Shown: positions 12,124 through 40,180, counted from the stretch's first letter. The stretch is DNA of 64,000 bases from Candidatus Bathyarchaeota archaeon (GCA_963827165.1 CAWGZR010000005.1:1-64000), one strand, 5' to 3'. Notes: generated from the letters alone by a model not told the origin. Made by a program: numbers and translations.

Positions 12124-12384
12124 TTATGTTGGAGTTGTTGCTGTTTGGCTTTGTGTTTGCGAAGATACTTGCGTTTGGAATACGTTGACGAATTTATGCC
12201 ATACCGCAATCATGGAGCCGCCTATAGTGATCAAGCCGCCGCACACCGATGCACCCAGAGCCTGATATTGAACTGGCATTGAACTCACCGCGGTCATACC
12301 TGCAGTGCCTGCAGCAACCAAACCTGCGCTAACCTCAACAAGTGCAGTCTCAGCTTTCTGACTCAGATTTATAGAACTCACCAT
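12124..12384 (-). CDS. two-TM holin-like protein
   Basis: Two hydrophobic helices; last gene of the late operon; GGAGGTGA SD. Confidence 0.6.
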   Translation of the reverse strand: MVSSINLSQKAETALVEVSAGLVAAGTAGMTAVSSMPVQYQALGASVCGGLITIGGSMIAVWHKFVNVFQTQVSSQTQSQTATTPT

Positions 12385-12485
12385 TTTACATTCACCTCCT
12401 TACCCAAAAACGGGTTACCATGAAAAAAAACGAACTACTGAACCATCCGAGGCTTCAGCAAAGGGACGTGGTCAAAAATTGGATT

Positions 12486-12902
12486 TTAGCTGCTACCCTG
12501 GGCAGGAACTGCTACCTCTGCATTGGCTTTCTTCATAGCATCTCCAGTCGCCTCATCCTTTAGATCCTCAGCAGACTTCTTGCCCTCAACAAAGCGCTCG
12601 TACAAGCCGAGCATGCTAATATGCAGTTTTTTCTGTTCACTCGCAGTTTTGAGCGCTTCAACAATTATGTCATGGGCTTTCTCGCCGACTACAACATCTT
12701 TCAGCACCGAGAGTTTCTCTTTGTTTAGATCTTCGTATTTGCTGCCGTTGGGCAATTTGTACTCGACAATGAATTCGCGGTGTTCCTCTTCTGTAAAACC
12801 AAGCGCCGTCTGCAAATCACGGATAATTTTCAATGTGGACGCGGTTCCTTCTTTCGGAATCACATTAAGCAGATTTATTCTTTCAGCTGGATTAAGCTTC
12901 AA
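12486..12902 (-). CDS. viral hypothetical protein downstream of the tail fibre
   Basis: 138-aa charged ORF, TTG start after GAGGTGA, co-oriented. Confidence 0.75.
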   Translation of the reverse strand: MKLNPAERINLLNVIPKEGTASTLKIIRDLQTALGFTEEEHREFIVEYKLPNGSKYEDLNKEKLSVLKDVVVGEKAHDIIVEALKTASEQKKLHISMLGLYERFVEGKKSAEDLKDEATGDAMKKANAEVAVPAQGSS

Positions 12903-12959
12903 ATTATTCTCACCTCAATTAAGCGATTTAATTTACTTAAAATGAAAAACAAAAAGAAA

Positions 12960-13241
12960 CTAACTGGAGACAGGGGCTGATGTTGTTGGAGAAGCTGTCG
13001 TTGCAGTCGCTGCTGCCGCCATGGTCGCGTTCAAGGAAGCGGCTGTAATTGCTGGCACTCCAAATATCGTTGCCAGTGCTGCGATGGTGTCTGGGAAATC
13101 GTTGAATACTTGCTGAACCGGTGGCATGAAAGGTTGACCTAGAGTTTGTTGAGTAACGATGAAGCCATTTGAGACTTGCTGAACTGTAACACTGACTAGG
13201 GAAGGAGTTGACGGTGTTGATGGTGCTGCCAAATCAATCAC
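12960..13241 (-). CDS. viral hypothetical protein with Ala/Thr-rich tail
   Basis: Overlaps the fibre stop; GGAGGTGA SD. Confidence 0.7.
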   Translation of the reverse strand: MIDLAAPSTPSTPSLVSVTVQQVSNGFIVTQQTLGQPFMPPVQQVFNDFPDTIAALATIFGVPAITAASLNATMAAAATATTASPTTSAPVSS

Positions 13242-16200
13242 CTCCTAATTTTTGGGTTAATTCATCGAGGCGTAAACGTAAATGATCTATTTCCATTCTC
13301 GCTTTGTCTAACTCTTCTCTGAGCTCATCGTTGATGATTTCTTGCTCGTCAAGTTTTTTGACTATTAATTGTTGGACGCATAAATGCCAGCCATCCATCG
13401 TGGATGATTCATAGAACCCGTCTTTGTTTTTGAGGTGCTTTATGCAGTCTGGGTCAATTGTGTCGCCTTTAAGTTTGATGTTGCGGATTAAGTCAAAGTT
13501 TATTTTTTCATTGAATTCGTCATGCAATAACTCATTGAACGCTGAGGGTGCATGGATATAGTAGATGTAGGCTGAGTATACGTAGTTCCAGTAAGAGCTT
13601 GATGTTCCGCATGATCCGGCGCCACCATAGATGGTTATCCCTGCGGTTAAGCTGTTTATGACGTTGCAGTAGAGGTATTGAGTGTCCACTATTTGCCATG
13701 GGTAGCTGTATGAACCGCAATAGTATGATCCGCCCGATTTTGGAAGTATGTTTCCGCCCACGTTGATGGCACCGCAGCTTAGACCACCGCAAGAAACATC
13801 CCCAATTGAATCTATAGAGAATACTACTCCTCCGCCCCATGAGCCCCTGTAATAAAACCAGTTGCCGTTAGTCATGATGTTAAAGGCGCCGTCATACCAT
13901 TGGATGCCGCCGTTTCCTGTTCCAAAAAAACCGTTTCCGAATATGGCGTTGCTGTAACTTGTGCCAAGAATTTCAACGGAGCCAGCGACGTAAGCTGTTA
14001 CGCAAGAAATTCCAGCCCATCTGTTTGAACCACTGCCAAGACCATAAGCATTGTCACTGATCGGGTTAACGTTGCCATTCATGTACATCGTGACAGCTGC
14101 GCCAGAAGCACCGCCAAGGTATAACGTGCTTGATGAGTTAAGCCAGGAACCGCTAACCCAAAAATTACTAGCTTCGCATTGACCTGTAACGTTCATGCCG
14201 CCGTTTATCTGGACGAAGTCCCACATGCCGATCTTACGTGTGCTGCCTATGTAGGAGCCAACTATCATCATGCCGTTCGTAGTCGAGTCAATAGCTATTA
14301 TCGACATGGACGTCGAGCAGTCCGACCATATCGAACCCCAACTGTTTTCAAATCCAACGCTCCCGAGACGACCGTAGCCAGTCGCCGTTACGCTGTTGGA
14401 AACCGTCATGTTGCCCGACTGGTCCAATAGCAAGAGGTCTACAGTCCAAGCATAATCCACAACATCTAGCCTTTGCCCTGATGCGCCAAACTGAATAGTG
14501 CACCCTGAAACAGAATCGGTGCGGCAGAATATTTGCGGATAACCTGAATTGTTTGCGCCTCCTCCTCTGGTTCCAATTTGATGGTAACCTGAAGATACTA
14601 TCCAGCCATAAGTGGTTAGGTCTCCGGCAGTGTCTAAAATCATTGTGTAACTTGAACCATGTGCCCAATAGCATTGACCGTTGCTGTGCAATCCAAACAG
14701 GTTAGTTCCAGTCGAATTATACAGAGCACCATGACTGCCGTTGCTAATGTAGTAGCAAATATTCCAACCGTTAAAACCAGCACCGTTGGCACCATTCGCA
14801 TAGACTTGAGGCGCAGTTACGGCGTTTGCCACTGTTCCGCCGCTCCAGGCAATGCTTCCCGATATTGTGCCAGTAACGGTTAGGTTGCCGTTTATGTAGA
14901 CTACAGGGTTTGCTGTGCCGGTTATGTAGAGCGGGTTTCCATAGGTATTAAGAACGTTGTAGACGGTTGAACCGATGGTGTAGTTGCCATTCATTGCTAA
15001 GTAAGTGGCTCCGCCATACACTCCAATTTTGATTGCTGCAGACGCGTTCGTGCATAAGACACTGTCGAACACTGCATCGCTGGTTGTGTTCAATGCTTGA
15101 TTTGGCAACGAAGAAGCCGCAGCGTAATAACTTGCCAACTGCCCGTTCAGTTCGGTTGCATTCGTAGCTGTAGCTGCATTGCCAGTGCATGACCCTGAAG
15201 AACCAGAACAGTTACCCATAACATTGCCAGAAAACGCCCCAGTTATCGTGCCATTTACAGTTAGGTTTCCATTGATGTACATGATGGGGTTAGATGTGCC
15301 TGTTACATAGAAAGGGTATGCATAGGTGTTTAGAATGTTGTAGGCAACGGAGCTAATCGCGTAGTTGCCAACCATCACCAAATAAGGAGCTGAAGGATTA
15401 GAGGATGGCGAGATCTTTATGGCTGCAGAAGTATTCGTACAATTAACACTATCGAAAACTGGATCCGCCGAGGTTAAGCCAGTTAACTGTGAAAATTGTA
15501 TGGGCATTGACATGTAATTTGAAATCTGGCCGTAAAGTATTGTCCAGCCAGACGCGATAGCGCCTGAACCGCTAAGAGTAGCAGGAGTAACAGCCGATCC
15601 AAGCTGAGCAGTTGATATTGTTCCGCCAAGAAGTGAGAAAGTAACCTGTGCGTATATTGGTGCTGAGCTACCTTGGCCTTCCAAAAAGTAACCGCTTGTT
15701 CCCAGCGGCAACTGCCCTAATGTTGTTGTTATAGTGATCCATTTAGGCGGAGCGCCTGAACCTTGACTTTGTAAAACCTGTCCGCTTGAACCAACCGTAG
15801 CGCTCCCAATAGTTCCTGTGTTTAGCGGGCACAGCAAAGTTATGGCTGAAGACTCCAGGCAATTCAAGAAATCAGTGTAACAGAAGACCTGGTCAACCCA
15901 GAGGAACGGGTACTTGTACGTTCCTAAGCCAATCATTGGCGCAGTATAGGGCGGTCCAGATTGCGGAGTTATCGTCGCAGTTGCCGCGGAGCCGTTTTGG
16001 TTTGCAACCGACGGAATAATATAGGTAAGATAGCTGCTGTTGAAGGTTAAAAACGAAGCTGGAAACCCAGAAGAAGGCACAGGCAACAACGGATTATTGC
16101 CAAGCATCAACGAAGCTACGTCACCAAAATTATCGGCTAATGTCACATACATGCCCGACGTATTAGGGTCGCTGCCATCCGGCATGGTCTGCAAAGCAGC

Positions 16201-17172
16201 GGAAGCATTAGCCAGCTTGGCTACAGCGCCGTTAATTGAAGAAGTCGCATTGATCAATGCGAGGAAAGCACCTGCAGGAGTGACAATTTCTAAAGTGCTT
16301 TTCGTCAAGTTCTTGGTGATGCGGTAAATCGCATAATTACCGCTTAAGCCAAGTTCGGCACCATTTGAGATAGTGACCAAATCTCCACTGTTCAAAGCGG
16401 CTGTTTGAGAAATGTCAGCTTCAAGCGGGCAACCGCTGTTAGTTTCTGCTAAACTCTGCAGATACGCGGCTGCCAACGCATTCAAAGACGCCTGGCTGGT
16501 AACAGCATTATTTGTTAATGTAATTGTGTTGTTGCCTGCTCCGACGCTACCCGCAGTGCCAATGATTACTTGTCCGGTGGGGCTTACTCCGCGGATAACT
16601 ACTCCTGAATAGGCTGTTTTGCTTCGATCAAAATTAACCTGGCTTTGTGTATCAACCGTTATTGCGGTTGGTGTTTGATTGCCTTTAACACCGATAATAA
16701 CTGTTGAACCCGAATTGTAAACGTTCTGGTTAAGAAGAGCGGCTAAGTTTTGAGCAGCCGTTAAGCAATCCGTTGAATTAAACTGTATACTAACGGATGT
16801 TGTTGGGCAAGAGCCAGCAGTCATGCCGGACGCAGCGCAGATCGCAGCTAAAACCGTGTTTGCAGCTACGTTATTGTATGCGCCGGTGATTTGGCGTTTC
16901 TCCATGACTTCAAAAGTGTTATTGTACACTGTGCAGGTTATCTGCGTAAAAGTTGCTGTGTAGGCCATAAGTAAGCCGCTGAAAATAATGGTGCTTCCCC
17001 ACAGCAGCTGCACTTGCTGGTTACTCTGTACAAAGGTCAAGTTCGCCGATGTGTTAGGAATAATAAAATCAAGCTCAAGCTGGCCGTTCAATTCGTCAAT
17101 AATCTGGCTGAACAAGGCATTCGGTACCGTAACCCAACTAGTACCGTTATAGTATTGGATTGTAAAAACCAT
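13234..17172 (-). CDS. tail tip/baseplate hub fused to tail fibre with C-terminal chaperone-like coiled coil
   Basis: N-terminal hub-like region; G/S/N-rich fibre with internal repeats; P-x4-Y-x-[LC]G-x5-W motifs; C-terminal heptad coil; position after TMP/Dit. Confidence 0.85.
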   Translation of the reverse strand: MVFTIQYYNGTSWVTVPNALFSQIIDELNGQLELDFIIPNTSANLTFVQSNQQVQLLWGSTIIFSGLLMAYTATFTQITCTVYNNTFEVMEKRQITGAYNNVAANTVLAAICAASGMTAGSCPTTSVSIQFNSTDCLTAAQNLAALLNQNVYNSGSTVIIGVKGNQTPTAITVDTQSQVNFDRSKTAYSGVVIRGVSPTGQVIIGTAGSVGAGNNTITLTNNAVTSQASLNALAAAYLQSLAETNSGCPLEADISQTAALNSGDLVTISNGAELGLSGNYAIYRITKNLTKSTLEIVTPAGAFLALINATSSINGAVAKLANASAALQTMPDGSDPNTSGMYVTLADNFGDVASLMLGNNPLLPVPSSGFPASFLTFNSSYLTYIIPSVANQNGSAATATITPQSGPPYTAPMIGLGTYKYPFLWVDQVFCYTDFLNCLESSAITLLCPLNTGTIGSATVGSSGQVLQSQGSGAPPKWITITTTLGQLPLGTSGYFLEGQGSSAPIYAQVTFSLLGGTISTAQLGSAVTPATLSGSGAIASGWTILYGQISNYMSMPIQFSQLTGLTSADPVFDSVNCTNTSAAIKISPSSNPSAPYLVMVGNYAISSVAYNILNTYAYPFYVTGTSNPIMYINGNLTVNGTITGAFSGNVMGNCSGSSGSCTGNAATATNATELNGQLASYYAAASSLPNQALNTTSDAVFDSVLCTNASAAIKIGVYGGATYLAMNGNYTIGSTVYNVLNTYGNPLYITGTANPVVYINGNLTVTGTISGSIAWSGGTVANAVTAPQVYANGANGAGFNGWNICYYISNGSHGALYNSTGTNLFGLHSNGQCYWAHGSSYTMILDTAGDLTTYGWIVSSGYHQIGTRGGGANNSGYPQIFCRTDSVSGCTIQFGASGQRLDVVDYAWTVDLLLLDQSGNMTVSNSVTATGYGRLGSVGFENSWGSIWSDCSTSMSIIAIDSTTNGMMIVGSYIGSTRKIGMWDFVQINGGMNVTGQCEASNFWVSGSWLNSSSTLYLGGASGAAVTMYMNGNVNPISDNAYGLGSGSNRWAGISCVTAYVAGSVEILGTSYSNAIFGNGFFGTGNGGIQWYDGAFNIMTNGNWFYYRGSWGGGVVFSIDSIGDVSCGGLSCGAINVGGNILPKSGGSYYCGSYSYPWQIVDTQYLYCNVINSLTAGITIYGGAGSCGTSSSYWNYVYSAYIYYIHAPSAFNELLHDEFNEKINFDLIRNIKLKGDTIDPDCIKHLKNKDGFYESSTMDGWHLCVQQLIVKKLDEQEIINDELREELDKARMEIDHLRLRLDELTQKLGGD

Positions 17173-17567
17173 TAGAGATTCACGTAGGATGCTGCATGCT
17201 TAAAGATCAAAGTAAATTTTAGTATTGGATTGTTTGCGTAATCTTTTGTTTGAATGAATGTTGCTTTATCCAGCTTCCAGGTGCTGTTGAGGCTGGATCT
17301 GGGCGTTGATAATGTGCAAACTAAGCCTCGAAAACCAAGCAGAGGCGTAACATAAGTAGTATCCAGGTAAGCCATGTTCTGGCCTGATACGTTAAGAACG
17401 CCCTCCAAAGTTAACTGGCGGATGTCGCTGCCGATAGAAACCAAAACAGGTTCTTGCTCGGGAACGGTAATTGTTGTGTCGTCAACGGTTGGTGCTTCAT
17501 CGGTTACTGTTTGTGGCGCCAAGGGCAAAGTAACCGTCGTGGATCCTTGCGTTATCTGCCAGCTCAT
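17172..17567 (-). CDS. distal tail protein (Dit/gpU-like)
   Basis: 131 aa between TMP and hub; IGSDIRQLTLEGVL. Confidence 0.65.
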   Translation of the reverse strand: MSWQITQGSTTVTLPLAPQTVTDEAPTVDDTTITVPEQEPVLVSIGSDIRQLTLEGVLNVSGQNMAYLDTTYVTPLLGFRGLVCTLSTPRSSLNSTWKLDKATFIQTKDYANNPILKFTLIFKHAASYVNL

Positions 17568-19040
17568 CTACAGCACCTTATTCATTAGTCCTTTCTTGTA
17601 CATAGCGTCGCAAATGCCCTTGCTGACTGCATCTCGTGTTTGCTTGAGCGAAGCTGAACCTGTAATGCCGCCGTTAATTGTGATGTTTGGAGAAGAGATA
17701 TTCACGTTGCTTGTTCCAGAACCGCCCTTGACATTAACGTTGCCAGCTAGACCCTGAAGGCTGCTGCCAAGAGTGTTGGTTTTATGAGCAAGTTGATCGC
17801 TAAGCGCGATACTCTGCGTAACCTGCTTGTTGAATTCTTCCGCAGCTGGAGCAGCGTGCGCAAAACATAGGTGGCTAAGGGCTGAACCCAAGTCGCCAAT
17901 CAATCCGCTAAGAGGTTTCACAGCGTTCGCAACAGCATTAATCGCCGTTTCAAAAGCCTTCACCGGAATCAACGCAACTTGCAAGTCTGCAACAAGAATT
18001 TCTTTGAAAAAGTTAGCTACCGGCAAAAGAATCGTTGTGTAAGCCCAGTTAAGAGCATTCCACAGGGCGTCTCCTGCGCTCTTCAAATCATTGAAAGCAC
18101 TAAGAAGGGCTCCGCCGATCACGTGCCCTAAGTCATTGATGACGTCGCGGAAGGGTTTGCAGTGCTCATAAGCCTCATAAAATAGCGCAGCTAAAGCTGT
18201 AACTGCCAGCACAACTAGCATAATCGGGTTAGCATCGCAGACTGCATCAAACAATCCCATAGCACCCGTTGCTGCCTCTGTTGCGCCAACCTGGATCCAC
18301 TGTGCAGCTGACTGAGCATCCGTCGCAGCTGTACTAGCTATCGTGCCAAGCGTCCCAGCTTCACGAAGACTGTTCAACGTCGTCATAATACCGACGACAC
18401 TGGGAATAACCGTAAGAGCCGACATCACAAGAGTACTATTATAATTACGTTGAGCCTCTGAAACCCTTTCTTGATCCACGCTTTGAGTCTGCTCAGCTAA
18501 AGCAAGTTTATTCTGTGCATCCTGTGCTTGCAAGCTTGTGGGACCATATTCGGCAACTGCTTTATTGTATGCTTGCTGAGCTAAAGTCACGGAATTCGCG
18601 GCTTTCTCCTCAGTCAAATTTGCCTTCGCAAGTGAAGTCTGAGCGTTCTCAATGTTGTTTACGCTCATATAGAGCATGGCGCCGCTCATGGCCATCGTGT
18701 TCATCTGCATTGCATTTTTGCTAAAGCTGCTGCTTGAATCCTCAGTCGCTTCTCCCGCCTGTTGGGTGCTGACTATAACTTGATTCATGCTTACCTGAGC
18801 AGAATCTGCCGCTTGATTGAAAGAATCCTGCATCTGAACAGTATCAGCCTGCACAGTAGTCGTCATAGTGGTGACGCTGCCCGCAGTATTCTGCATGCTA
18901 CTTGACACATCGGTGCTCATTGAGTCGGAAGCTTCGCTGACATTGCTGCTCATATCGGAAAAGTTGCTGCTGACCTCTTGGAAAACATCCGAAGCATCAT
19001 CAGTCGCGATAATGTCTATTTCTGCAGGAACTCCACTCAT
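17568..19040 (-). CDS. tail tape measure protein
   Basis: IDIIATDDAS N-terminus, Ala/Gln-rich helices, ANPIMLVVLAVTALAA..Y....FRD motif. Confidence 0.9.
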   Translation of the reverse strand: MSGVPAEIDIIATDDASDVFQEVSSNFSDMSSNVSEASDSMSTDVSSSMQNTAGSVTTMTTTVQADTVQMQDSFNQAADSAQVSMNQVIVSTQQAGEATEDSSSSFSKNAMQMNTMAMSGAMLYMSVNNIENAQTSLAKANLTEEKAANSVTLAQQAYNKAVAEYGPTSLQAQDAQNKLALAEQTQSVDQERVSEAQRNYNSTLVMSALTVIPSVVGIMTTLNSLREAGTLGTIASTAATDAQSAAQWIQVGATEAATGAMGLFDAVCDANPIMLVVLAVTALAALFYEAYEHCKPFRDVINDLGHVIGGALLSAFNDLKSAGDALWNALNWAYTTILLPVANFFKEILVADLQVALIPVKAFETAINAVANAVKPLSGLIGDLGSALSHLCFAHAAPAAEEFNKQVTQSIALSDQLAHKTNTLGSSLQGLAGNVNVKGGSGTSNVNISSPNITINGGITGSASLKQTRDAVSKGICDAMYKKGLMNKVL

Positions 19041-19146
19041 AATAAATCACAAACTTTTTTGTTCAATATGATATTCTATTAACAAAGAGTGCAGCCATCT
19101 TTACACGCAATAGAAGCATGCTGTGACGTCAAAAGCAAGATTGGGT

Positions 19147-19893
19147 TTAGCTTAAAAACGGGTTATAATAGGTTATTTTAGAGTACTTGCTTTTTTTGTA
19201 AACAAGATATCCCAATATTGCGCCGACAACGGCACCAAAAATCGGGTTAAGAATCCAAAACGCAAAAGTCCAAAAGGTAGGATAACTTAATGACGTTCTA
19301 ACTCGCCCAAAAATCTCCACAAGTCCCACCATAATTAGCCCGCCTCCAAAAAAGCCGAATGGCACTCCTATTGTAGCTCCGAGGAAAACATAGGAAATCT
19401 CGGCACCAACCATCTGGCTTTTTGGAGACCATTTAGCTCTTACTTCCCGCATCTTATAAGAAGTGTAGGCTAAAATGATGGCGAGAAATAAACCGATGAT
19501 ACCTATAAGCAAATTTCCAAAACTAACTAATCCAAACGAGTAAAGTATGGAAAAAACAAGGGCTGCACCGACCCCAAGCAGCGCTACTCTAAACCAGAAT
19601 TGACTTATCACTAGCATTTCACTCTCTGCTCGGCTTACGCCTTCTGGAAATTCGACTAAAAGCTTAGCGGCAATAAGACCCTTATCAGTCAATGAATACT
19701 TGTTATCACTGGTCTTTGACAAAAGACCGTTAAGAACTTTCAAGTGATAGTTCATCTTTCCGGTACTGCTGATCCCTAATTCCTTCATTAGCTCCGTGTA
19801 GCCAATGTCACCTCTTTCGTGAAGCAAAAGGATAGTTCTTTGTCTTGTGCTGTCTTTCAAGATCTTAAACAGCCGAGCTAATTCTGAAGTCAT
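19147..19893 (-). CDS. wHTH + 4-TM membrane regulator inserted as a moron in the tail operon
   Basis: LFKILKDSTRQRTILLL...YTELMKELGISSTGKMNYHLKVL plus four hydrophobic helices; own palindrome GACTAA-N4-TTAGTC at 19932-19947. Confidence 0.85.
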   Translation of the reverse strand: MTSELARLFKILKDSTRQRTILLLHERGDIGYTELMKELGISSTGKMNYHLKVLNGLLSKTSDNKYSLTDKGLIAAKLLVEFPEGVSRAESEMLVISQFWFRVALLGVGAALVFSILYSFGLVSFGNLLIGIIGLFLAIILAYTSYKMREVRAKWSPKSQMVGAEISYVFLGATIGVPFGFFGGGLIMVGLVEIFGRVRTSLSYPTFWTFAFWILNPIFGAVVGAILGYLVYKKSKYSKITYYNPFLS

Positions 19894-19995
19894 AGGCTTT
19901 TACTTATTATCATTTGAATTTAAGTTCTCTTGACTAAAAAATTAGTCCTCATTAGCAAATTTATCCATGCCTCATTTGTGTCAAATTATCGAGGG

Positions 19996-20178
19996 CTATC
20001 CTTCTGATAATTTACGATACCAAATCGCGGATTGGATCAAAAATTCAAGTTGAAAATTAGTCAAGCTTGCCGCGTACTCTAGGGTGTAGTGGTAGAGGTT
20101 GACGACGGCGGCGATCCGCTGGGCTTCGCTGCTCCAGTAGATCCAGTCATTGACCGCCTCACCTGACGCGGTAAAAAA
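19996..20178 (-). CDS. -1 frameshift extension of the tail chaperone (gpGT-like)
   Basis: T TTT TTA at 20172-20178; -1 frame reads TASGEAVNDWIYWSSEAQRIAAVVNLYHYTLEYAASLTNFQLEFLIQSAIWYRKLSEG*. Confidence 0.8.
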   Translation of the reverse strand, partial: FFTASGEAVNDWIYWSSEAQRIAAVVNLYHYTLEYAASLTNFQLEFLIQSAIWYRKLSEG

Positions 20179-20534: not shown

Positions 20535-20601
20535 ATCACCTCATTAATAATTTCTAATTTTTGGATAAGAAAATTGAAAAAACAAAGAGAAGGAAAAGGC
20601 A

Positions 20602-21033: not shown

Positions 21034-21060
21034 CTCGATTACAATGGTTACTTAAAACCG

Positions 21061-31201: not shown

Positions 31202-31501
31202 AGCACTTGCTTATCTGCTATCAAGAGATATTAATGCTTTTGCCAATGCGGTTTATCTAAAGTCTTTGTTTTTGGTTTTTAAAGCATAATCTCCCTATCA
31301 AATGATAAATCGACCTTCCCGCGCGGATTAGCTATGGGCGCGTGGTTACATCATTCCCCTCAGAAGGCAACTAAACAAACGATGCTTCAAAAGTGCAGAG
31401 AATTGAGCAAATATTTGCGCGCAAGATTTCAGGGATTTCAGAACCTAAAATAGCTTGCTTGAATGAAAAAAAAGAAAAATTGAAGTTCAAAAAGAACTCA
31501 A

Positions 31502-32383
31502 TTACCCGGTTGCAGTGTACTCGCCAAACCAGGCGTCATTATTCAGGTAGTCTTCAGGTGCAAAGTGGTTGAAGCTGTTCGCATAGGGATTTAAATAGGG
31601 GGTGTTTTCGAAATAGACAGTGTAACAGGGTCCGTTGTTCTGCTGATATTGTACATTGCTCCATTGTCCGAAGATGTTATTTTGTATCCCAGATGCGATT
31701 GTTGACTCGCATGATGAGTAGACGAATGTCGTCGAACTGAAGCCGCAAATTCGAGAAGCGAACATATGCCATGTATTAGCATTGCCAGGATTGAAGTTGT
31801 ACCATGCCGTCCAATTTGAGTTATCTTGTGCAGCAGCCACTTCGATGGTTTGACCAAGCGCTAACCCTGATGGAGAGTAATCTTGATGTTCGACGTTGAC
31901 CTGGTAACCGCCCCACCAAGTTGTCAAGTAAAGGAAAGGGGTTCCCCAGCCGTTGTTATAATCAACTTGAATTCCGACTTCCGCAACGTTGTATTCCACC
32001 GTGCTGGAGCCAGACCCAGTGTCATATACAGCGCCTAACCCCATCCAGTTATTAAAAGAATTCGAACCCATTCCTATCGCGTCGAGTGCTACATCAGCGT
32101 ATACTGCGGTCACGGTGGTTTCAGGCTGGCCAATTATACACCCATAAGGTCCAGATGTCTGAGGTGACGCACTAGATATTTGCGTCGAATTTATCTGTGA
32201 TGGTATAAACGATCCGCCTATTGAGTTAACCACAGCTCCATGTATGGGCTGCAAAAAAACATTTGCCACCATCAAGCTCAAGAGCATGACTGCAATTATT
32301 CCAACTATTCTTTTTCCTTGTCTCACTTTCAAATTCCTCGCGGTTGTTATGGATTGGTTGTATAAGAGACTTTCGTAAGACAC
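31502..32383 (-). CDS. secreted beta-rich protein, neprosin/G1 peptidase-like candidate
   Basis: Signal/TM; NNWMGLG...VAEVGIQ...GQTIEV...NWTAWY...SSCES. Confidence 0.6.
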   Translation of the reverse strand: MSYESLLYNQSITTARNLKVRQGKRIVGIIAVMLLSLMVANVFLQPIHGAVVNSIGGSFIPSQINSTQISSASPQTSGPYGCIIGQPETTVTAVYADVALDAIGMGSNSFNNWMGLGAVYDTGSGSSTVEYNVAEVGIQVDYNNGWGTPFLYLTTWWGGYQVNVEHQDYSPSGLALGQTIEVAAAQDNSNWTAWYNFNPGNANTWHMFASRICGFSSTTFVYSSCESTIASGIQNNIFGQWSNVQYQQNNGPCYTVYFENTPYLNPYANSFNHFAPEDYLNNDAWFGEYTATG

Positions 32384-32597
32384 TATAAACCAACCGTTTG
32401 CTTGTCAGGTCTTCAAGAAAAAAATTGCGTGTGTTCAGTAATCCCAGAGGTCGACAAAGGAGTTCTGAAGTCAGGGATAGGAAATAAATTTAGCTCCCAA
32501 AAACAAAAATGCTGCAAACCGTTTTAGCGCCCGTCCTCACGACGCTCCAACATATACAGTTAATTACTCCCCTAACATTTAGCAACTCAATTTAAGT

Positions 32598-34124
32598 TTG
32601 CTTCGCAAAAGCAGAAGGACATGCATGAAAAATAGACTGATAATAGCCTTATCACTTATGGTAATAGCGGTCATTACAATATCATTGCTTGCGGCTTCAG
32701 AAAATAAACTGCCTTCTCCCTCTCTTGTTGGGGCTAAGAAGCCCTTCTATCTTGGCGTCACATACTGCGGCAGTTCGGTTGCCGGGGCCGACCAATTAAT
32801 CGACAGCATAAAGAATTGCACTAATCTGTTTGTAGTGCAGTCTGGACCCTTGATGGATAATCTTACCGACCTAAATCAGGTATGCAGCTATGCTGTTCAG
32901 GCTGGGTTGAAGATTATAGCGTACTTCACCAACACCAGTCCCACCGTAAATGTGCCCTCATTCATCAGCCATGCTCAGGCTACGTGGGGCAGCAACTTTC
33001 TGGGTGTCTATTATTGTGATGAGCCTGGAGGAAAAATGCTTGATACCGGAATTGCTGTAACTTCCGACGATTTGATTATAAGTGGAGCATATGGCGAAGT
33101 CGATGAAATTCCCCAAAACCAAACTCAACCCCAACTTTCCTACTCTACATCGGGCATAGTATCAATAGTACGGTTCACCAACCAGTCAACTGTAAGCCCG
33201 TTTCTAACACCTGTCATTACAACTTATTACCCTAACGGCACCATTACTTATACAGCTTTTACGACACTAATCTACGAGCCAAACGGCAAAGTTCTAAACG
33301 AAAACGGGCAAGTTGTAACTAACCAGGGTAACATTTCGCAGTTTGAACCCTACCAGCAAGTCCTGAATCAAGACCCTCTGCTCAATTACACCGATGCTGC
33401 TAACTTATACGTGAGCAATTTAAAGTCGACGTTGTCTGGTATTGGCAATCAAACAGACGTTAATCTTTTCACCTCTGATTATGGGCTCTACTGGTATGAT
33501 TACCTAGCAGGTTATAACACCGTATTTGCTGAACAATTTGGGACAAACGCCGACACACAAGCCTTAGCTTTAGTGCGGGGTGCTGCTGACATGCAGGGTA
33601 AAAATTGGGGCGTTATGATTGAGCCTTCATGCCAGTCGCCGCTTACACTTCAAACGGGCGATCAAATATACGGCGAGCTAAAACAGGCATATGAGGATGG
33701 CGCTGAGTATGCGGTGTTATTCAACTATGCGCCAAATTGCAATAGTACATTAGGGCTTTTACGGGACGAGCAGTTTGCCGCAATTCAGAGATTCTGGGAA
33801 AATGTCGTACAGAACCCTAAAGAAACCAATAACGTCACTGTGCAAGTCGCATTGGTTTTGCCTGCTAACTATGGGTTCAGCATTTCAAGCGCGGGGCACG
33901 ACACGACAAGCAAAATTGACACTATTTGGGGTATATGGGGACCAGACGTAAACTCGAAGCAGGTTTGCAGCTCAGTGCAGCAGTCCCTTGCTAAATATGG
34001 GTCAAGACTTGATATCATATATGCGGATTCAGGTTATCCGACCGCTGGAAGATATCAACAGGTGATATACTGGAATATCCCTCGACAACCCTTCTTAATG
34101 ATAAAGCAGTGGCTCAATGTTTAG
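32598..34124 (+). CDS. exported protein, glycoside hydrolase-like barrel candidate
   Basis: N-terminal TM; FLGVYYCDEPGG, FTSDYGLYWYDY, VFAEQ, LVRGAA..WGVMI. Confidence 0.7.
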   Translation: MLRKSRRTCMKNRLIIALSLMVIAVITISLLAASENKLPSPSLVGAKKPFYLGVTYCGSSVAGADQLIDSIKNCTNLFVVQSGPLMDNLTDLNQVCSYAVQAGLKIIAYFTNTSPTVNVPSFISHAQATWGSNFLGVYYCDEPGGKMLDTGIAVTSDDLIISGAYGEVDEIPQNQTQPQLSYSTSGIVSIVRFTNQSTVSPFLTPVITTYYPNGTITYTAFTTLIYEPNGKVLNENGQVVTNQGNISQFEPYQQVLNQDPLLNYTDAANLYVSNLKSTLSGIGNQTDVNLFTSDYGLYWYDYLAGYNTVFAEQFGTNADTQALALVRGAADMQGKNWGVMIEPSCQSPLTLQTGDQIYGELKQAYEDGAEYAVLFNYAPNCNSTLGLLRDEQFAAIQRFWENVVQNPKETNNVTVQVALVLPANYGFSISSAGHDTTSKIDTIWGIWGPDVNSKQVCSSVQQSLAKYGSRLDIIYADSGYPTAGRYQQVIYWNIPRQPFLMIKQWLNV

Positions 34125-34540
34125 GGGCCGTGCAATTCGTTGTGTTGTTGTGTTCTCTGTTGCTGTATTAATTAAGCATCGAAAAACCGAAAACCTTTCA
34201 AAAAGCGCTTCTACGCGGCTGAGACTACCTTACCTTCATTTTTTTAGTTATTTAGGGCACAATCCTCTTATACGATAATTGATGTTTAGGTTTGTGCAAC
34301 GTTGGCGCTTTTGGGTATGTTTACGCTTTACTGTTGCTTATTGTAGGCAAGCTCAAAAGCGACGTTAGCGCGCGATTGCATCTAGGTAATAATGGTGCCT
34401 CTGGACCTGAATTGTCGGTTTTTGTCCATCGCAGTGTCATAAAATTTAGCATTTGACTTTCCGAGAAAAAGGCTGTTGTTACGTCTTAACAACAATCGTT
34501 AAATATTAACAACCCAAAAAATAGTGAGAGACCTCGCAAA

Positions 34541-34680
34541 ATGCGAAAACACGATGTAACCATAGCCCTCTCAAACCGCATACTCCAAAAAAAGTGACCA
34601 AGAAGCTACAAAGTGCAAGAAAAGATCAGGAAGCGAATACACGAAATTATTCTTCGAAGAGCTCTTTTTACGCCTTCAAA
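34541..34680 (+). pseudogene. possible ribbon-helix-helix remnant
   Basis: MRKHDVTIALSNRILQK then frame break in an A-run, continuing DQEATKCKKRSGSEYTKLFFEELF. Confidence 0.3.
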
Positions 34681-34798
34681 CTTGGACAGACAAAGAGTCT
34701 CCTTAAAGCTTATCAAAGAAAGCTTGTTCGCGAATAAACTTTTCTTGAGTATCCTATTATGATAATAGTCTCGATTGTTTTGATTTCTAACAAAATAT

Positions 34799-35662
34799 TT
34801 AATAGAGCGGTGGATTCTGGACTACCTGCCCTGTTGCCGCATCAATTAAGATAAAATCCATAGGTGGCATACTTAGTATGCCAGATTTTTGCATATCTAT
34901 TTGCCAGACATAAATGTAAATTACACCATTACCGGTGACATGTGAATAGTTTTCTGGAGGATTTGTCAAGTCGCCTGTTGATGGATTAACCTTAATCGGC
35001 AGTGATTCACTGTGAACGGTGTCGTTGGTCACAATGGACCAGGGCATGAGATTAATGTACAATGTCATGCCTTGAAGTGACGTTTTGTTCCAGTCATCAG
35101 CTTCTAAGCCTATTAGGAGTGCTTGGTACATTGAAACTGGCGGTCTAAATGAAGAATTAGTATCTGTAATGGGAACTACTCCAAATCTACTATAGTATGC
35201 TGCTGCGTCTTTCCCGTTAACTTGGTCAAATTCTTTCTGAATTGAGGTTGTTTGATTGTACTCAAATAATGCAATCGCCGAGCTCGCAATCAAAAGAGCT
35301 ATCAGCATAAAGGCAACTGGTTTCAAGCCTAACTTACCGCCAAAGAAGCGTCTATGTGCTTTTTCTCGTCCGCTACTTTTTGGTGATGCGTTCTCTACGG
35401 TTTGCACAGTTAACAGAGCATCTTTTCCTTCGTCAGATAAGCAATATTTGCCATATTCATCAGTTTTTATCAAGCCGTTAAGTTTAGTTAGGTGATGTTG
35501 CAGGTGTCCGCTACTTTCAATGGCTGTCTTTTTCTTCAATTCAGCAAACCCTAAAGCACCTTCGCTTAGAACCTTCAGAATCAGTATACGTGTTGGATGC
35601 CCAAGTGCGTCAAATACCTCTGCACGTTGCCTGTCATGCTCTACCTGTTTTTCATCTTCCAT
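34799..35662 (-). CDS. membrane-spanning ArsR-like regulator: wHTH + TM + extracellular PepSY-like end
   Basis: VFDALGHPTRILILKVL...SSGHLQHHLTKL; one TM; C-terminal FILIDAATGQVV; palindrome GTCCAG-N4-CTGGAC at 35754-35769. Confidence 0.85.
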   Translation of the reverse strand: MEDEKQVEHDRQRAEVFDALGHPTRILILKVLSEGALGFAELKKKTAIESSGHLQHHLTKLNGLIKTDEYGKYCLSDEGKDALLTVQTVENASPKSSGREKAHRRFFGGKLGLKPVAFMLIALLIASSAIALFEYNQTTSIQKEFDQVNGKDAAAYYSRFGVVPITDTNSSFRPPVSMYQALLIGLEADDWNKTSLQGMTLYINLMPWSIVTNDTVHSESLPIKVNPSTGDLTNPPENYSHVTGNGVIYIYVWQIDMQKSGILSMPPMDFILIDAATGQVVQNPPLY

Positions 35663-35877
35663 TTTCGCCCTCTCCTAGTTTCTTGTTCATCAATGTCCAA
35701 TACTCTATTTAATACCTCTTTTGTAGACCAAATAAAAAGTAAATGAACAATTAGTCCAGTTTTCTGGACACAATATTGTCCAGTCAAAAAAAAGCGTGAC
35801 CTAGTCGATTAATGATTAAGCAAAAACTAACTGACAATACTGTATAGAGTCTATATCCACATCGCATATTAAGAGTT

Positions 35878-37227
35878 GTGATATGTGATATGTTGGGGAT
35901 TATGAAGATGAATAAAAAATTTAAACTACTCTTAACGTCAACAATTTTGATTGCAATTCTCGCAATATCATGCAGTTATGCAATATTGACGCCAATTGCA
36001 AAGGCAGAGACAGAAACGAACTCAGGTGGACCACAAATTACTGCGGCTTCTTCAAATGGAACCTTAACCACACCAATTTATATGCCTGGAATCGGGAATT
36101 CAACTCAGTCAGCAAACATAGACCCTTCTTCGACCAATTTAAAAGCAAACAACATTACGTTAGCTGATTCAACAATTCTTAGTGCGCAGCCAATGACTTG
36201 GGGAAATCGTTGGTGGATAATTGATCAATGGACGACGCCTTCATACATGAGTGGTTCATTTACAGCTGTTGCCGATTCATTCCAAGGCTGGAGTTCTGGT
36301 GATGCAATTATTTATGAGCCCATGAACGTGGCTTATGGTACATCCAGCTCAAATTTCAACTGGTTCCAGTTTTGTATATTCTTTAATCAGAACGGGACCG
36401 TAAATTGGGGTGTCCAAGATACTCCATTAGGTGGATCTAGTTATACATGGTATCCAGCGCCAATGTCTTATACAGTGGGGCACTCCTATAGTTTCTCCTT
36501 CACCACATCTGGCAGTAGCACTGTTGTCTTCAGTCTAACTGACACTACAACTAACAATCCACAAACACATAGCTTCAGTTCTCCCGGAGTGACAATTCTA
36601 GTGAATCCTATCTATAATAGCCAAGAGAGTTATTCGCCAGCAAGTTGTGTTGAAGGCTGGAACAATGCCAACCAAGTGACTAACGCCCCAACTTTTACAA
36701 CAACAATTGGCACAGGTGAAAGCAATTACTACTATTGGACATTTGTATCTACAGGTGCTGCGATAAATGGTGTTACTACTAATGTTGTTGTAAGCGGCTC
36801 TAATTACCAGTGGTCAATGACACCGGCGACGTTTATATCAAGCCTCTACGGAAATCCCATACCGATTGGACAAGGATCAGTTACAAATGCAAACTATATC
36901 ATAGGCGCACCTAACAGTCAAGATGCAGTAATTTATGGAGGAAATCCTGGCGATGGCGGAAGCATAGGTGGAAATTTAGTTACAAGTACTGGCGGAACAA
37001 TTGTGGTTGATGGTTATGTTTCACCCGGCTACTATAGCGACCTGATTATATACGTGTCCGTTGATGGGTCAACATGGATTCAGGCAGGAAGTATCCTTGT
37101 TGGGTCGAATTCCGGAACACATATTGATGTATGCACATATTCTAGCGCTTTCAACTACATTCAAGTTACCGGCTATGACTATACAGATAGCGTAAACTTT
37201 CATTTAGACGCCGTTTATGTAACATAG
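35878..37227 (+). CDS. secreted thermopsin/G1 peptidase-like protein, intact paralog of 573..1830
   Basis: Signal peptide; EPMNVAYG..WFQFCIFF..ASCVEG; C-terminal beta domain. Confidence 0.75.
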   Translation: MICDMLGIMKMNKKFKLLLTSTILIAILAISCSYAILTPIAKAETETNSGGPQITAASSNGTLTTPIYMPGIGNSTQSANIDPSSTNLKANNITLADSTILSAQPMTWGNRWWIIDQWTTPSYMSGSFTAVADSFQGWSSGDAIIYEPMNVAYGTSSSNFNWFQFCIFFNQNGTVNWGVQDTPLGGSSYTWYPAPMSYTVGHSYSFSFTTSGSSTVVFSLTDTTTNNPQTHSFSSPGVTILVNPIYNSQESYSPASCVEGWNNANQVTNAPTFTTTIGTGESNYYYWTFVSTGAAINGVTTNVVVSGSNYQWSMTPATFISSLYGNPIPIGQGSVTNANYIIGAPNSQDAVIYGGNPGDGGSIGGNLVTSTGGTIVVDGYVSPGYYSDLIIYVSVDGSTWIQAGSILVGSNSGTHIDVCTYSSAFNYIQVTGYDYTDSVNFHLDAVYVT

Positions 37228-37652
37228 CGGTAAAAACCGTATATAGGACAATTAGCCTTTTTTTTCTTTATATTCTACCCTAAATGTTCGGTTATGTTAC
37301 TTTTGAAGCAAAATATGCCGATAACTCTTTTGTTCTTTAAACTCCCAATCCTTTTATTTGCAACCTTAGCAATGAAGTCGGGGAAAACGCTAAGTAACCT
37401 TCTTAGGCAGCGAAATCGGAACGAAGAAAACAAACTCTTGATACATAGCTGAAAACGCCGTCTTTAATAGAAGACAAGTACTCCTTAATTATTCCGCCCC
37501 TAAAATAACCAATAACCTATTAAGTGATATTACAAAGTAAACCGAGAAATTCATTTTAGCTTTAATTGATCGTCACAAGAAAATTTGCGTAGTTTTACCT
37601 AACTAACAAGATGTATGAGATAATTGTAGCGGCGGGCGACGGTTTTTTGTGT

Positions 37653-38110
37653 TCAAGCAATTTTCTTTTCTGTTTCGCTCCAAATTTCCACTGCAAAGCT
37701 GGTTAGTGCCCAATGCCAACCGCGCTTTTCCACAACATGCTCGCCGAATTCTTTCTCTAAGCGTTTATTCATTCTTAGAATTCTCCTGCTGACCTGATGC
37801 CTGTTAACCTTAAACCTTTGAAGCTTAACAGCCAAATCCTTCGGCAGCAGCCCTGAAGAACCAACCTCAAAGAGTCCCTGCAAAATCTCACGGTCTACCT
37901 CATCAGAACACACAACTCGCTCGATTAGTGATTGCTCAAAATTGAAAGAACCCTTCAGGCCAGCGAAAATCGTGCGTAACATCAGCTTGACCTCTTCAAC
38001 CTCTGCCAACGTCTGCTTGAGGAGTTGCTGGTTATACTTCAAGCGACCAATTTTATCGCTTTGACTGCGCTTCTTTTTGTTATTTTGAACAGGTTTTTCA
38101 GCGGTTTCCA
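37653..38110 (-). CDS. coiled-coil + C-terminal wHTH protein; start probably ATG 38110
   Basis: DEVDREILQGL...PKDLA...RHQVSRRILRMN...KRGWHWALT. Confidence 0.75.
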
Positions 38111-38297
38111 TGACAGAACGCTCACTCCAAGAATTTTTCTCCATCAACACAGGGCAAAAATGACAGTAGGTAATCAGGACCAAACAGTGGCAGAAAAGCG
38201 GGTCCTGAAAAGCATGGACTTTTCCCATGCCCTAAGCATACTGCTGAAATGTCTTTTGAACAGGTTTTAACAGCCATTAGCGCAGAAATAACCGAAG

Positions 38298-39209
38298 TCA
38301 AACGGTGTACTCCCCAAGTTTTCTCTGTCCTTCAGCCAGCTTTTGCGGGTCAGCCTCATCATCTACTCGCCCAAGGGCTTCAATTAGCTGCTCAAATTTA
38401 ATCTCAAGCCGATCCAATTTCTTATCGATCCGCTTGACTTTCTCAGGCATCTGCATATAATCAATCGCCGCATCTTTGCCGATGTTCTCAAGCTCGCCTT
38501 CGCCCCAGCTGTGATCAATCTTGCGACGCCCCGCTCTAACACTGAAGTATCTGCCAAACAGTTTCGCGATAGGATCCTCAACAGCCATTTCGCCGCCACA
38601 AAATGCTCCCTCAGCTAAGATAACTCCGTATTTCTTAGCTAAAGCCACCGCAATGCGATTACTCAGGTTCATGGCTAAGCCGTAAACTTCCGCCGGGTTC
38701 TTACCTCGAATCACCGGCACATGAACAATCCAACTCTTTGAAGTATGCCTAACCTTAACACCCTGCTCCAAACCCAAAAGAGCCGTCCAATTCTGCATCT
38801 CCACAGCCTTAAACTTCCCATCAGGATAACGCCCCTCTGCCAAAATCTTAAAAGACACTTGGCACTTGTCCAGCCGGTGCAACTCGCCAGGAAAAACTCT
38901 GCCCTCACATGACTTGAGAAGATTTGAGCCCTCGGTTGTAAGGGCATAAAAGGTTGCGCTGCTGCGTTTCTCCTGGTAGATTAGGCCTGCTTTTTGTAGC
39001 TTGCCGATGTAGTACCATACGTGGGAACGGCTTAAACCCAAGATTCTGCCAGCTTGAGTGGGGTAATCACCTGCATAAATGCGCTTCATCAAAGGAAGAA
39101 CCCATGTGCGGACTTTATCGCTGTCAAACTGCACGCTACCTGTGGCTTGATGTCTAGTTGTACTTTGAGCATTTTCAGCACCAACTTTTGTACTTTGATT
39201 TTCAACCAA
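38298..39209 (-). CDS. wHTH + conserved acidic domain + coiled coil; candidate replication/regulatory protein
   Basis: YPTQAGRILGLSRSHVWYYIGKL...FYALT; HRLD; IDHSWGEGELE. Confidence 0.75.
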   Translation of the reverse strand: MVENQSTKVGAENAQSTTRHQATGSVQFDSDKVRTWVLPLMKRIYAGDYPTQAGRILGLSRSHVWYYIGKLQKAGLIYQEKRSSATFYALTTEGSNLLKSCEGRVFPGELHRLDKCQVSFKILAEGRYPDGKFKAVEMQNWTALLGLEQGVKVRHTSKSWIVHVPVIRGKNPAEVYGLAMNLSNRIAVALAKKYGVILAEGAFCGGEMAVEDPIAKLFGRYFSVRAGRRKIDHSWGEGELENIGKDAAIDYMQMPEKVKRIDKKLDRLEIKFEQLIEALGRVDDEADPQKLAEGQRKLGEYTV

Positions 39210-39212
39210 AAA

Positions 39213-39458
39213 TCAAGCCTCCAGCCGGTTGGATAAGGAGTCATTTATTTTCGCTTTGATCTCCTCCTCGAAAGCATCAACAGAAAGCGTTAGGTCATCT
39301 AACGAAATGCAAAGTTTTCTATTTTCTTCCCAAAGTAGCCGATTTTCTTTTTCCAGAACCGCAATCCTTTCTTCATATGTTAGTAGGACGCGCTGAACTT
39401 CTTGCAAAACATCCGATCTAATTCTGTCCCTTATTGAACCGTCGCCATTTTGAATCAT
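39213..39458 (-). CDS. coiled-coil viral protein
   Basis: Heptads EERIAVLEKENRLLWEENRKL; ATGA overlap with the upstream gene. Confidence 0.7.
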   Translation of the reverse strand: MIQNGDGSIRDRIRSDVLQEVQRVLLTYEERIAVLEKENRLLWEENRKLCISLDDLTLSVDAFEEEIKAKINDSLSNRLEA

Positions 39459-39724
39459 CGGTACCTGCCTCCAAAACGTCTACGCTCAAGAACTCCCCGC
39501 CCAGAACAAGAACCGCCGCCATGCGTACAATGCCGATTAGCAAAACTGTACCGCTTACACGAAATATCAGTTCCATCAGCAAACGCCAACTTTGCGAACT
39601 TGCAGAAAAACAAGTCCTTGGAACAAGTATCCATGACAGCGCAGTCTTTCGACTGAAGATTACTTATGCAAGGATAATATCCAAGAAGACACGGAGGCTT
39701 AAACGAATCAGCGACAAAGCTCAT
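39455..39724 (-). CDS. Cys-rich small viral protein
   Basis: Multiple Cys; GGAGG SD; coupled to the downstream gene. Confidence 0.55.
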   Translation of the reverse strand: MSFVADSFKPPCLLGYYPCISNLQSKDCAVMDTCSKDLFFCKFAKLAFADGTDISCKRYSFANRHCTHGGGSCSGRGVLERRRFGGRYR

Positions 39725-39888
39725 TTAGGGCTGCCTCCTCTGGGCTGAAACTTAGAGCAAACGCTGCTTGAAGATAGCTGATTAATCGACTTCTTACCCT
39801 TCAAAGCGGGCTCAGAGCAGCGCCCACACCAAAAAACACAGTCCACACAACGAGGTTCTTCAACCTTCTGATTCTCAGTAAAATCTAA
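39721..39888 (-). CDS. Cys-rich zinc-binding microprotein; start uncertain
   Basis: Frame ...EEPRCVDCVFWCGRCSEP...VCSKFQPRGGSPK* ends in ATGA overlap with 39724. Confidence 0.4.
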   Translation of the reverse strand, partial: LDFTENQKVEEPRCVDCVFWCGRCSEPALKGKKSINQLSSSSVCSKFQPRGGSPK

Positions 39889-40180
39889 GAGCCTAAAAAA
39901 AGAGAAAAAATCAGTACCTTTTCTTGGCTGGGTTGGTGGGGCTGCCCGTCCCTAAACCCATTTGAGAGTGTGTGAAAACTCAAATTCAGTTTTAGAAATT
40001 GCGCCTTATATGAAAAAAACAACTCACACTTCGCCCAAATCATCATTAAAACAGCAATTTTCTGAAATTGAAAATGGTTTTTACACAGTCTCGTTTTGGG
40101 GTAAGCCCGGTCCGGCTCGCCATACAAATCTTTGTTCAGACCACTCTACCTCTGTTTTTTGGCTTTTTCACCATTTGATT

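Follow-up and report, generated by a model that had tools for sequence, protein, structure and literature searches.

The first 64,000 nucleotides of contig C5 of a Candidatus Bathyarchaeota archaeon (GCA_963827165.1, CAWGZR010000005.1:1-64000), called the window below and used for all positions unless another contig is named, contain a compact block of head and tail genes accompanied by no recognizable integrase or replication gene, and the question raised by this locus is what kind of element it represents. Bathyarchaeia are abundant, uncultured carbon-cycling archaea for which few viruses have been described. The original prediction, made from the sequence alone, placed a tailed provirus of a Bathyarchaeia-like host at 12124-39900 and hesitated between a new virus with its integrase to the left and a domesticated element resembling a gene transfer agent (GTA). 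The answer favoured here, and held to be probable with some reserve, is a provirus of a temperate siphovirus-type member of the Caudoviricetes infecting Bathyarchaeia of peat and soil, integrated at the 3' end of a tRNA-Pro(TGG) gene and probably decaying. The source genome is an archaeal metagenome-assembled genome (MAG) of 3.13 Mb in 14 contigs, 94.5% complete; C5 has 970,559 bp and starts at window position 1, and the adjacent window on the left that was to be inspected does not exist. Families were sought with Pfam in 70 open reading frames (ORFs) of the window (32 + 38) and with PHROG profiles, and NCBIfam gave nothing useful for the 24 proteins scanned with it. Evidence on variants comes from assembled contigs of four public runs of two studies, three of them called X1, X2 and X3.

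The predicted morphogenesis module is real, and positions 12124-30800 form a contiguous series of minus-strand head and tail genes in which the large terminase TerL, the portal, the major capsid protein (MCP) and the tape measure were identified. The closest syntenic relative is a provirus on contig C30 of G020 (PLSP01000042.1), a Bathyarchaeota MAG, with 95% identity in TerL, and diverged sister copies are found on other contigs of the source genome. From right to left the module reads:

30392-30796 and 30133-30462, minus: two small conserved ORFs, kept together with the ParB-N-like gene in the C9, C11 and G020 copies
29596-30132, minus: ParB-N-like protein (PF02195 4.9e-8; phrog_620 1.3e-20)
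28541-29617, minus: ABC-type ATPase and GNAT, each half matching phrog_11143 (4.3e-25 and 4.4e-25)
27995-28519, minus: putative small terminase TerS, assigned by position, overlapping the 5' end of TerL
26889-28052 from the first GTG, with the conserved frame open from 28112, minus: TerL (PF03237 1.7e-15; PF17289 1.9e-6; phrog_2 3.1e-37)
25401-26873, minus: portal (phrog_9232 3.3e-18 over residues 87-434; no Pfam match)
25109-25429, minus: 106-aa Cys-rich protein
24010-25092, minus: 360-aa protease/scaffold candidate, role from position
23640-24008, minus: 122-aa scaffolding or decoration candidate (phrog_673 2.3e-8)
22669-23568, minus: MCP, 299 aa, assigned from the PF25209 of its homologues and the predicted fold
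Within 20079-22588, minus: connector candidates of 153 and 145 aa, roles from gene order
21061-21423, minus: gp10/Neck1-like protein (PF04883 1e-6; phrog_5 2.9e-13)
20602-21033, minus: 143-aa tail-tube candidate, from gene order
20079-20534, minus: 151-aa chaperone candidate, from gene order
19147-19893, minus: inserted DUF7347 gene for a winged helix-turn-helix (wHTH) membrane protein (PF24038 6.7e-10), within a 953-bp insert, 19044-19996
17568-19040, minus: tape measure, 490 aa (phrog_1272 7.2e-12)
17172-17567, minus: 131-aa distal-tail candidate, from gene order
13234-17172, minus: fibre/tip protein, 1312 aa
12960-13241, 12486-12902 and 12124-12384, minus: three small genes, the last encoding a membrane protein

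TerL shows the Walker A motif GRRWGKT and the ATPase and RNaseH-like nuclease domains of a large terminase. The 299-aa MCP and the 490-aa tape measure named in the original prediction are both supported, the latter by its PHROG match; by the rule of thumb used in that prediction, 490 residues would give a tail of about 70 nm. The direct score of the MCP against PF25209 is 21.4 bits, under the cut-off of 27, and the family is present in 17 of the 19 clusters of MCP homologues found among 5.8 billion proteins. An AF2 model of low confidence (pLDDT 56) contains a long spine helix and a beta core, and gives 45 Foldseek matches in the PDB at E<=1e-3, headed by 9m66_A (1.1e-5); nearly all of those listed are tailed-phage capsid proteins, HK97 included. 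On the evidence of homologues and model the MCP has the HK97 fold of the Caudoviricetes capsid, and portal and tail genes of that class are represented by phrog_9232 and by phrog_1272 and phrog_5, respectively. The connector and tail genes in 20079-22588 are 80-98% identical in amino acids to the C13 and G020 copies, and the genes of 12124-19040, which also contain a weak YQBQ-like Pfam match under the cut-off (1.6e-4), are 76-98% identical to those of G020. The putative TerS has no family match in the Pfam, PHROG and NCBIfam scans, and is 65-67% identical to the genes at the same position in the C11 and G020 copies. No sheath family was matched in the Pfam and PHROG scans of the module proteins, and the particle would therefore most likely be siphovirus-like.

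A Bathyarchaeia-like host, as predicted, is confirmed by the distribution of TerL. The 27 public genome loci with a TerL of at least 72% identity all belong to MAGs whose titles read Candidatus Bathyarchaeota or Bathyarchaeia, and bog, palsa or SPRUCE occurs in several of the isolate names; the metagenome runs containing this DNA are from soil, peat, sediment and wetland. To the right of the provirus, C5 carries the host core genes for thermosome, Cgi121 and ABCE1.

The attachment to the host is seen at the right end, where the following features are located:

37653-39849, minus: conserved right arm, 85% nucleotide identity to G020 56446-58633; homology ends at 39849
37653-38228, minus: 191-aa protein of the right arm
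38298-39209, minus: 303-aa wHTH protein (p303) of the right arm
39213-39458, minus: 81-aa coiled-coil protein of the right arm
39932-39948: 17-bp copy of the tRNA-Pro 3' end (attachment site, att), an exact repeat of 45517-45533
39949-45516: separate 5.6-kb island encoding Fic, an 887-aa beta-propeller/Ig surface protein and a PIN-DUF3368/UPF0175 toxin-antitoxin pair
45519-45596, minus: tRNA-Pro(TGG), the integration target (ARAGORN; Rfam RF00005, 51.6 bits)

The homology to G020 over 37666-39849 shows that the right arm is part of the provirus, and the arm recurs together with the ParB-ATPase-GNAT-terminase block on C11, C9, C3 and C12 of the source genome. The predicted limits of 12124 and 39900 thus fit the conserved core well. 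In an X3 contig 39931 is followed immediately by 45517, 17 letters of the joint being assignable to either side, and no contig of that run covers the island. In the X3 variant the distance between the right end of the provirus and the 3' end of tRNA-Pro is 82-85 nt, and in the window about 80 nt separate it from the 17-bp copy; the host junction of an integrated provirus is therefore observed directly, as a provirus-tRNA joint. As a control for the 15-mer att, 0 of 100 shuffles reached three matches. The terminal sequence of the island (matches within about 39934-40099) recurs in eight further places of the source genome, one of which, on C1, adjoins the same 15-nt fragment of tRNA-Pro. The X3 joint and the recurring end together show that 39949-45516 is a separate island inserted in tandem. 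Two sister copies are likewise found at tRNA genes: on C9, tRNA-Asn is followed at a distance of 74 nt by the right arm, and on C11 the arm comes after tRNA-Gln. The lineage targets tRNA genes.

The same junction bears on the suspicion that a free viral contig was wrongly joined to host DNA during assembly or binning. The long-read assembly does contain at least one indel error, and several related copies break contigs in the source genome. Against this, independent X3 contigs join the right end of the provirus to the full tRNA-Pro gene, C5 is 970,559 bp long with archaeal core genes, and of five related IMG/VR records examined three are classed as provirus and two as linear. An artefact of this kind is hardly credible, and is the least probable of the explanations considered.

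The island itself encodes no integrase and is precisely absent in X3; it may have been moved in trans by an integrase of the same tRNA-Pro specificity. Just downstream of Fic, positions 41217-41260 give a 44-nt match (88.6%) to a tRNA-Val(GAC) region (C6 26325-26368), which may be the remnant of an older att and could be the tRNA-Val mentioned in the original prediction.

The statement that the window holds no integrase, MCM, primase or polymerase was borne out. No recombinase/integrase, MCM, primase or polymerase family was matched in the 70 ORFs scanned with Pfam, and PF00589 has no match in C5:1-64000, no six-frame search having been directed at serine recombinases. The layout of G020 indicates where an integrase should be expected. 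Nucleotide identity between this provirus and the window is 83-91% over 12500-30810 and 37666-39849, with 76-98% amino acid identity per gene, from the tail genes to the right arm. It is bounded by an exact 19-bp direct repeat, 18671-18689 and 58748-58766, enclosing about 40 kb, and the first copy lies 20 nt from the stop of a 471-aa tyrosine-recombinase-like ORF (PF00589 3.6e-5) which is 63% identical to an integrase of the source genome that passes the Pfam cut-off. By our own estimate about 2e-4 such 19-mers would be expected by chance to be common to stretches of 1.7 and 34 kb. Unlike the window, G020 thus has an integrase-like gene and an att pair, as well as a split fibre gene and other cargo inserts. 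This copy occupies a non-tRNA site, and orthologues of its flanks are located on C9, C3 and C6 of the source genome. About 13 kb separate the G020 integrase from the tail genes, a left arm with wHTH regulators and an ABC-transporter operon, and the corresponding region of the window is:

1-12123: accessory DNA, putatively the left arm, with wHTH regulators, secreted proteins and a beta-propeller, cut by the contig start

Two parts of it, 2020-2454 and 3223-3543, have 60-63% homologues in the left arm of G020, which places the integrase position just beyond the contig start, by a kilobase or two. The absence of an integrase here is an effect of the contig edge, and the gene would be either off-contig or lost in this copy. 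A virus with its integrase to the left, as originally proposed, thus agrees with the layout of G020 but cannot be demonstrated for this copy, whose contig starts within the left arm.

The source genome was also searched with the G020 integrase, and the three matches, a complete gene and two fragments of the C-terminus, are internal to C10 and away from any contig end. The full gene (46368-47777, 63% identical to that of G020) and the fragments at 52011-52103 and 63662-63868 lie within 17 kb, an arrangement suggestive of repeated integration events that left remnants. The first 2 kb of C5 have no overlap with another contig of the assembly, and the only other tRNA-Pro fragment of the assembly, on C1, belongs to another copy of the island. 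The 15-mer has no further copy in 1-39931, the sole other match having two mismatches and lying inside the tape-measure gene. Matches of 14-16 bp to the right end of G020 at 13789-13804 and 32855-32868 were rejected as left att, being A-rich and intergenic. An empty site at the tRNA-Pro/TrxB locus of genomes G016 and G004 was rejected as well; the locus is not colinear on the 3' side of the tRNA, and its neighbours map to six regions of the source genome.

GTAs of the RcGTA type occupy a fixed chromosomal locus, are inherited vertically and package random host DNA in pieces below the size of their own cluster. The window resembles them in presenting a head-tail cluster without visible integrase or replisome in the available DNA, and strong purifying selection on the structural genes also speaks for a particle-producing element of this kind, kept by the host and lacking integrase and replication genes of its own. 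Among 17 gene pairs compared with G020, dN/dS is 0.02-0.22 at dS 0.39-2.6, three further pairs having been dropped because of internal stops in the G020 extract. The selection that the prediction proposed to measure is thus present, but such low values fit a virus and a GTA alike and show only that any decay is recent. A further point in favour of a GTA is the IMG/VR copy G045, in which a host-like TFB gene adjoins the tail end and the integrase arm is missing. The remaining evidence speaks against one. The locus, which the prediction proposed to check, is not fixed: the flanks of G020 map elsewhere, the copies of the source genome occur at tRNA-Asn and tRNA-Gln, and of 24 same-genus genomes 5 have a TerL of 77-95% identity, the other 19 lacking a close one. 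At least four diverged copies are present in one genome at different tRNA genes (TerL on C13 with 82% identity, portal on C9 with 57%, portal on C3 with 51% and MCP on C13 with 41%; all break contigs). G020 has an integrase and an att pair, unlike RcGTA-type agents, a TerS candidate and virus-typical regulators are present, and the damaged TerL start described below would disable a GTA too. Both results that the original prediction had named as refuting its GTA idea, an integrase with an att pair and variable loci, were thus obtained, the former in G020. A GTA-like element is accordingly regarded as very unlikely, and the variant in which the window copy and copies like G045 are "grounded" proviruses, particle-producing under purifying selection and not decaying remnants, is no easier to believe.

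With a provirus preferred, the next question is whether this copy is intact, as had been predicted, and this wording proved too strong. The TerL frame contains no ATG, GTG or TTG upstream of the GTG at 28052, which lies four codons before the Walker A motif, and in 16 of 16 relatives an ATG is located about 27 codons before that motif. In a second comparison six of seven relatives have M at the start and one (G003) has L. The 5' region of TerL in the window differs in sequence from the relatives, stop included, and since the contigs of X1, X2 and X3 show 0 differences there the lesion is real. It sits where the divergent TerS allele meets TerL, which suggests a recombination scar, and a packaging defect is probable. 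The DUF7347 gene is located between the tape measure and the chaperone candidate, and neither G020 nor any of the 8 IMG/VR loci spanning the position has its insert. Though largely well preserved, this copy has probably begun to decay.

The flanking pseudogenes of the original prediction fared differently. A frameshift that truncates the ATPase depends on a letter at 29215 which the contigs of the four runs, from both studies, do not have, and is probably an indel of the assembly; the split between ATPase and GNAT is a conserved -1 frame change and not decay. The indel casts doubt on the other flank pseudogenes. Interruptions are also seen in the small membrane-protein genes near 7.6-7.9 kb and 11.8-12.1 kb, and the ORFs within 573-1860 are fragments of one family member of 449 aa; all of these may be real decay or further indels. 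The lesson is that some pseudogenes are long-read indels, and that a missing integrase can be a contig edge.

The copy could instead be complete and inducible, with the integrase and the left att just off the contig, TerL started from GTG or a non-canonical codon, and the DUF7347 gene a harmless moron. In agreement with this, all structural ORFs compared with G020, 13 gene pairs, agree in length with their counterparts, the fibre is a single 1312-aa ORF where that of G020 is in two pieces, dN/dS is low, the one clear frameshift (29215) is contradicted by the contigs, and homologues in the left arm put the integrase position just off the contig. Two observations disagree: all 16 relatives keep the ATG and 27 conserved N-terminal codons, which are untranslatable here from a standard start, and the 94.5% complete assembly offers neither an integrase at a contig end nor a fitting third fragment of tRNA-Pro. 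A complete copy is therefore a possibility to be taken seriously, yet on balance rather unlikely.

Several points also weigh against a decaying, integrase-integrated provirus as favoured here. The available 40 kb contain no integrase and no second att, and integration by an integrase would be an extrapolation from relatives. With 24.0 bits the integrase of G020 falls short of the Pfam gathering cut-off of 27.1, and the att-bounded 40 kb of that genome, including the ABC-transporter operon, could be a composite of provirus and island. In the IMG/VR record G045 the tail end is 40 nt from the TFB gene with no integrase between, indicating that the integrase arm is not always present and that its loss occurs in the lineage. 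TerL might be initiated at the GTG at 28052 or at a non-canonical codon, and its loss of function is no more than probable. In the source genome a simple repeat scan gave one CRISPR array (C4:272138-273642, 37-nt repeat, 21 seed copies), and the whole array has no match of at least 22 nt to the provirus and so gives no independent sign of recent infection. Among the related loci compared, the array matches only L003, over 25 nt at 88% (E = 5.4), and this was treated as chance.

In the course of events proposed for the provirus, the lineage would enter tRNA genes and other short sites by means of a tyrosine recombinase encoded far to the left, beyond the accessory arm. From the tRNA-proximal right end the gene order would be regulators, variable cargo, ParB-like protein, recoded ATPase-GNAT, TerS, TerL, head, connector, tail and fibre. 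Having no DNA polymerase, primase or helicase of its own, the virus would presumably use the host replisome, and the absence of a replisome is said to be not unusual for genomes of such size. The contig would begin inside the left arm, with the integrase and the second att off-contig or lost, and the integrase-less 5.6-kb island would later have been inserted between the provirus and tRNA-Pro. Decay would have begun with the loss of the TerL start codon and the arrival of a foreign gene between tape measure and chaperone.

The novelty claimed for this virus was overstated. IMG/VR contains 17 uncultivated virus genomes (UViGs) of the lineage, 9 of which have a full-length MCP with 98-99% identity; MCP identities in IMG/VR reach 99-100%, and tailed proviruses of Bathyarchaeia have been published (PMC10848311, PMC11705971, PMC11697101). 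The UViGs, for example IMGVR_UViG_3300041809_003430 (26.7 kb, provirus), share about 90-95% nucleotide identity over the module and the same gene order, and differ from the window in lacking the DUF7347 insert (8 of 8), in having a normal TerL ATG and in carrying other cargo; none is characterised or named. CheckV rates the 26.7-kb record 73% complete, implying roughly 36-37 kb. The locus adds a well-delimited member to a lineage widespread in peat and soil (17 UViGs and 27 MAG loci), an advance that is incremental and not surprising.

Among the published elements, a siphovirus-like provirus of 46.8 kb, encoding terminase, integrase and structural proteins, is described from a complete Bathy-6 MAG and called "common in Bathyarchaeia" (PMC11697101); by that description it is also head-tailed. 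Two Bathyarchaeia MAG loci (L059 and L065) have a TerL 87-88% identical to that of the window, and the isolate name suggests that their MAG comes from the same study. Eight Bathyarchaeia proviruses are reported among 38 described (PMC11705971). The Fuxiviridae and Kunpengviridae (ICTV 2025) are, according to their descriptions, likewise head-tailed Caudoviricetes of Bathyarchaeia, with hosts in the Bifangarchaeales and Jinwuousiales of hot springs and vents, and Fuxivirus, of 31,982 bp, is likewise small; Kunpengvirus is reported to have an integrase, MCM and PolB, the last two of which are not seen in the window (PMC10848311, PMC12451623). The MCP gave no tblastn match at E<=1e-3 in 50,697 GenBank phage records, among which Fuxiviridae PP467601 and Kunpengviridae PP467599 are not included. 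TerL gave 2270 matches in GenBank phages, all below 60% identity, and the best of those listed are to the bacterial Tunturiibacter phage Tunturi_4 (34.1%), with 32.6% for Halorubrum phage Hardycor1, both of the T4-type TerL fold family. With TerL at most 34% identical among the matches listed and no MCP match in cultured viruses, the lineage would probably need its own family.

The lineage recombines freely with sister copies in one genome. Sister proviruses at C9:307.9-327.2 kb, C13:1-6.4 kb, C11:180.9-191.3 kb and C3:298.9-310.5 kb reach contig ends inside the structural module. The end of C9, in the protease/scaffold gene, and the start of C13, 381 nt upstream of the MCP gene, look like one broken provirus, in which the tape-measure and fibre genes are replaced by a surface-protein gene of a host family and the tube gene is frameshifted. 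Two IMG/VR records from different metagenomes, G041 (L127) and G045 (L130), both terminate within a TFB (TFIIB) gene with 88-91% nucleotide identity to that of G020 (12812-13753). This gene comes after the virus right end in one record and 40 nt before the tail end in the other, and either proviruses flank the host TFB or the viruses carry TFB between their ends.

The right-arm protein p303 is modelled with a wHTH domain, an alpha/beta domain and a coiled coil, and nearly all of its listed Foldseek matches are regulators of the wHTH/MarR/ArsR/Lrp type or winged-helix domains, with two RIO2 kinases. With over 397 clusters its family is much broader than that of the MCP, and in the protein Atlas only unnamed viral and Bathyarchaeota clusters were found. 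The idea of a hidden integrase or replication protein was dropped, as a PDB profile search gave nothing below E = 0.09 and the folds are of the wHTH type; the model points to a DNA-binding protein, possibly a regulator or origin binder. Between the right arm and the module lies a variable part of the provirus:

30797-37652: variable cargo, with secreted or surface proteins at 31502-32383, 32598-34124 and 35878-37227 and a DUF7347 regulator at 34799-35662

This region has no homology to G020, which has 2.8 kb there, and paralogues of it are scattered over the host genome. Contigs of X2 and X3 join 31333 to 34310, skipping 2976 bp with two secreted-protein genes, and the segment is a presence/absence polymorphism of the provirus cargo. 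At its end (34239-34367) the block is similar to the terminus of another insert, that at 43689-43816 of G020.

In the left arm, a 737-aa secreted-protein ORF (5000-7213) is found in 0 of 30 other same-genus genomes, indicating that the first 12 kb are accessory and not core host DNA, and over 11261-11870 the window is matched at 99% identity by the IMG/VR record G041. A 4.2-kb segment with a beta-propeller, a 260-aa ORF and two wHTH genes lies between direct repeats of 170 bp (7598-7766 and 11826-11995, 87-91% identical). The repeat occurs as a single copy at the matching place in the G020 and IMG/VR L040 proviruses, which indicates a duplication or insertion in the window, where both copies are interrupted. 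It was rejected as an att, since it corresponds to the 3' portion of genes of a small membrane-protein family which is also found beside the host TFB in G020.

The ATPase and GNAT ORFs are joined by a conserved -1 frame change at an A7 run, 29014-29020 on the minus strand. The two never share a frame, and their junction is a conserved run of A7 or A9 (A_AAA_AAA); the split is seen in the source genome on C9, C11, C12, C10, C5 at 330 kb, C13 and C3, and in 29 loci of other MAGs and UViGs. The run is present in all 31 ATPase-GNAT pairings examined elsewhere, with GNAT in the -1 frame in 28. A -1 shift at the A7 run yields a fusion matching phrog_11143, which is a family of single proteins, and where the reading frames overlap the changes between copies are synonymous or conservative in the -1 frame and radical in the 0 frame. 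The junction is a candidate for a programmed -1 frameshift or transcriptional slippage in archaeal viruses.

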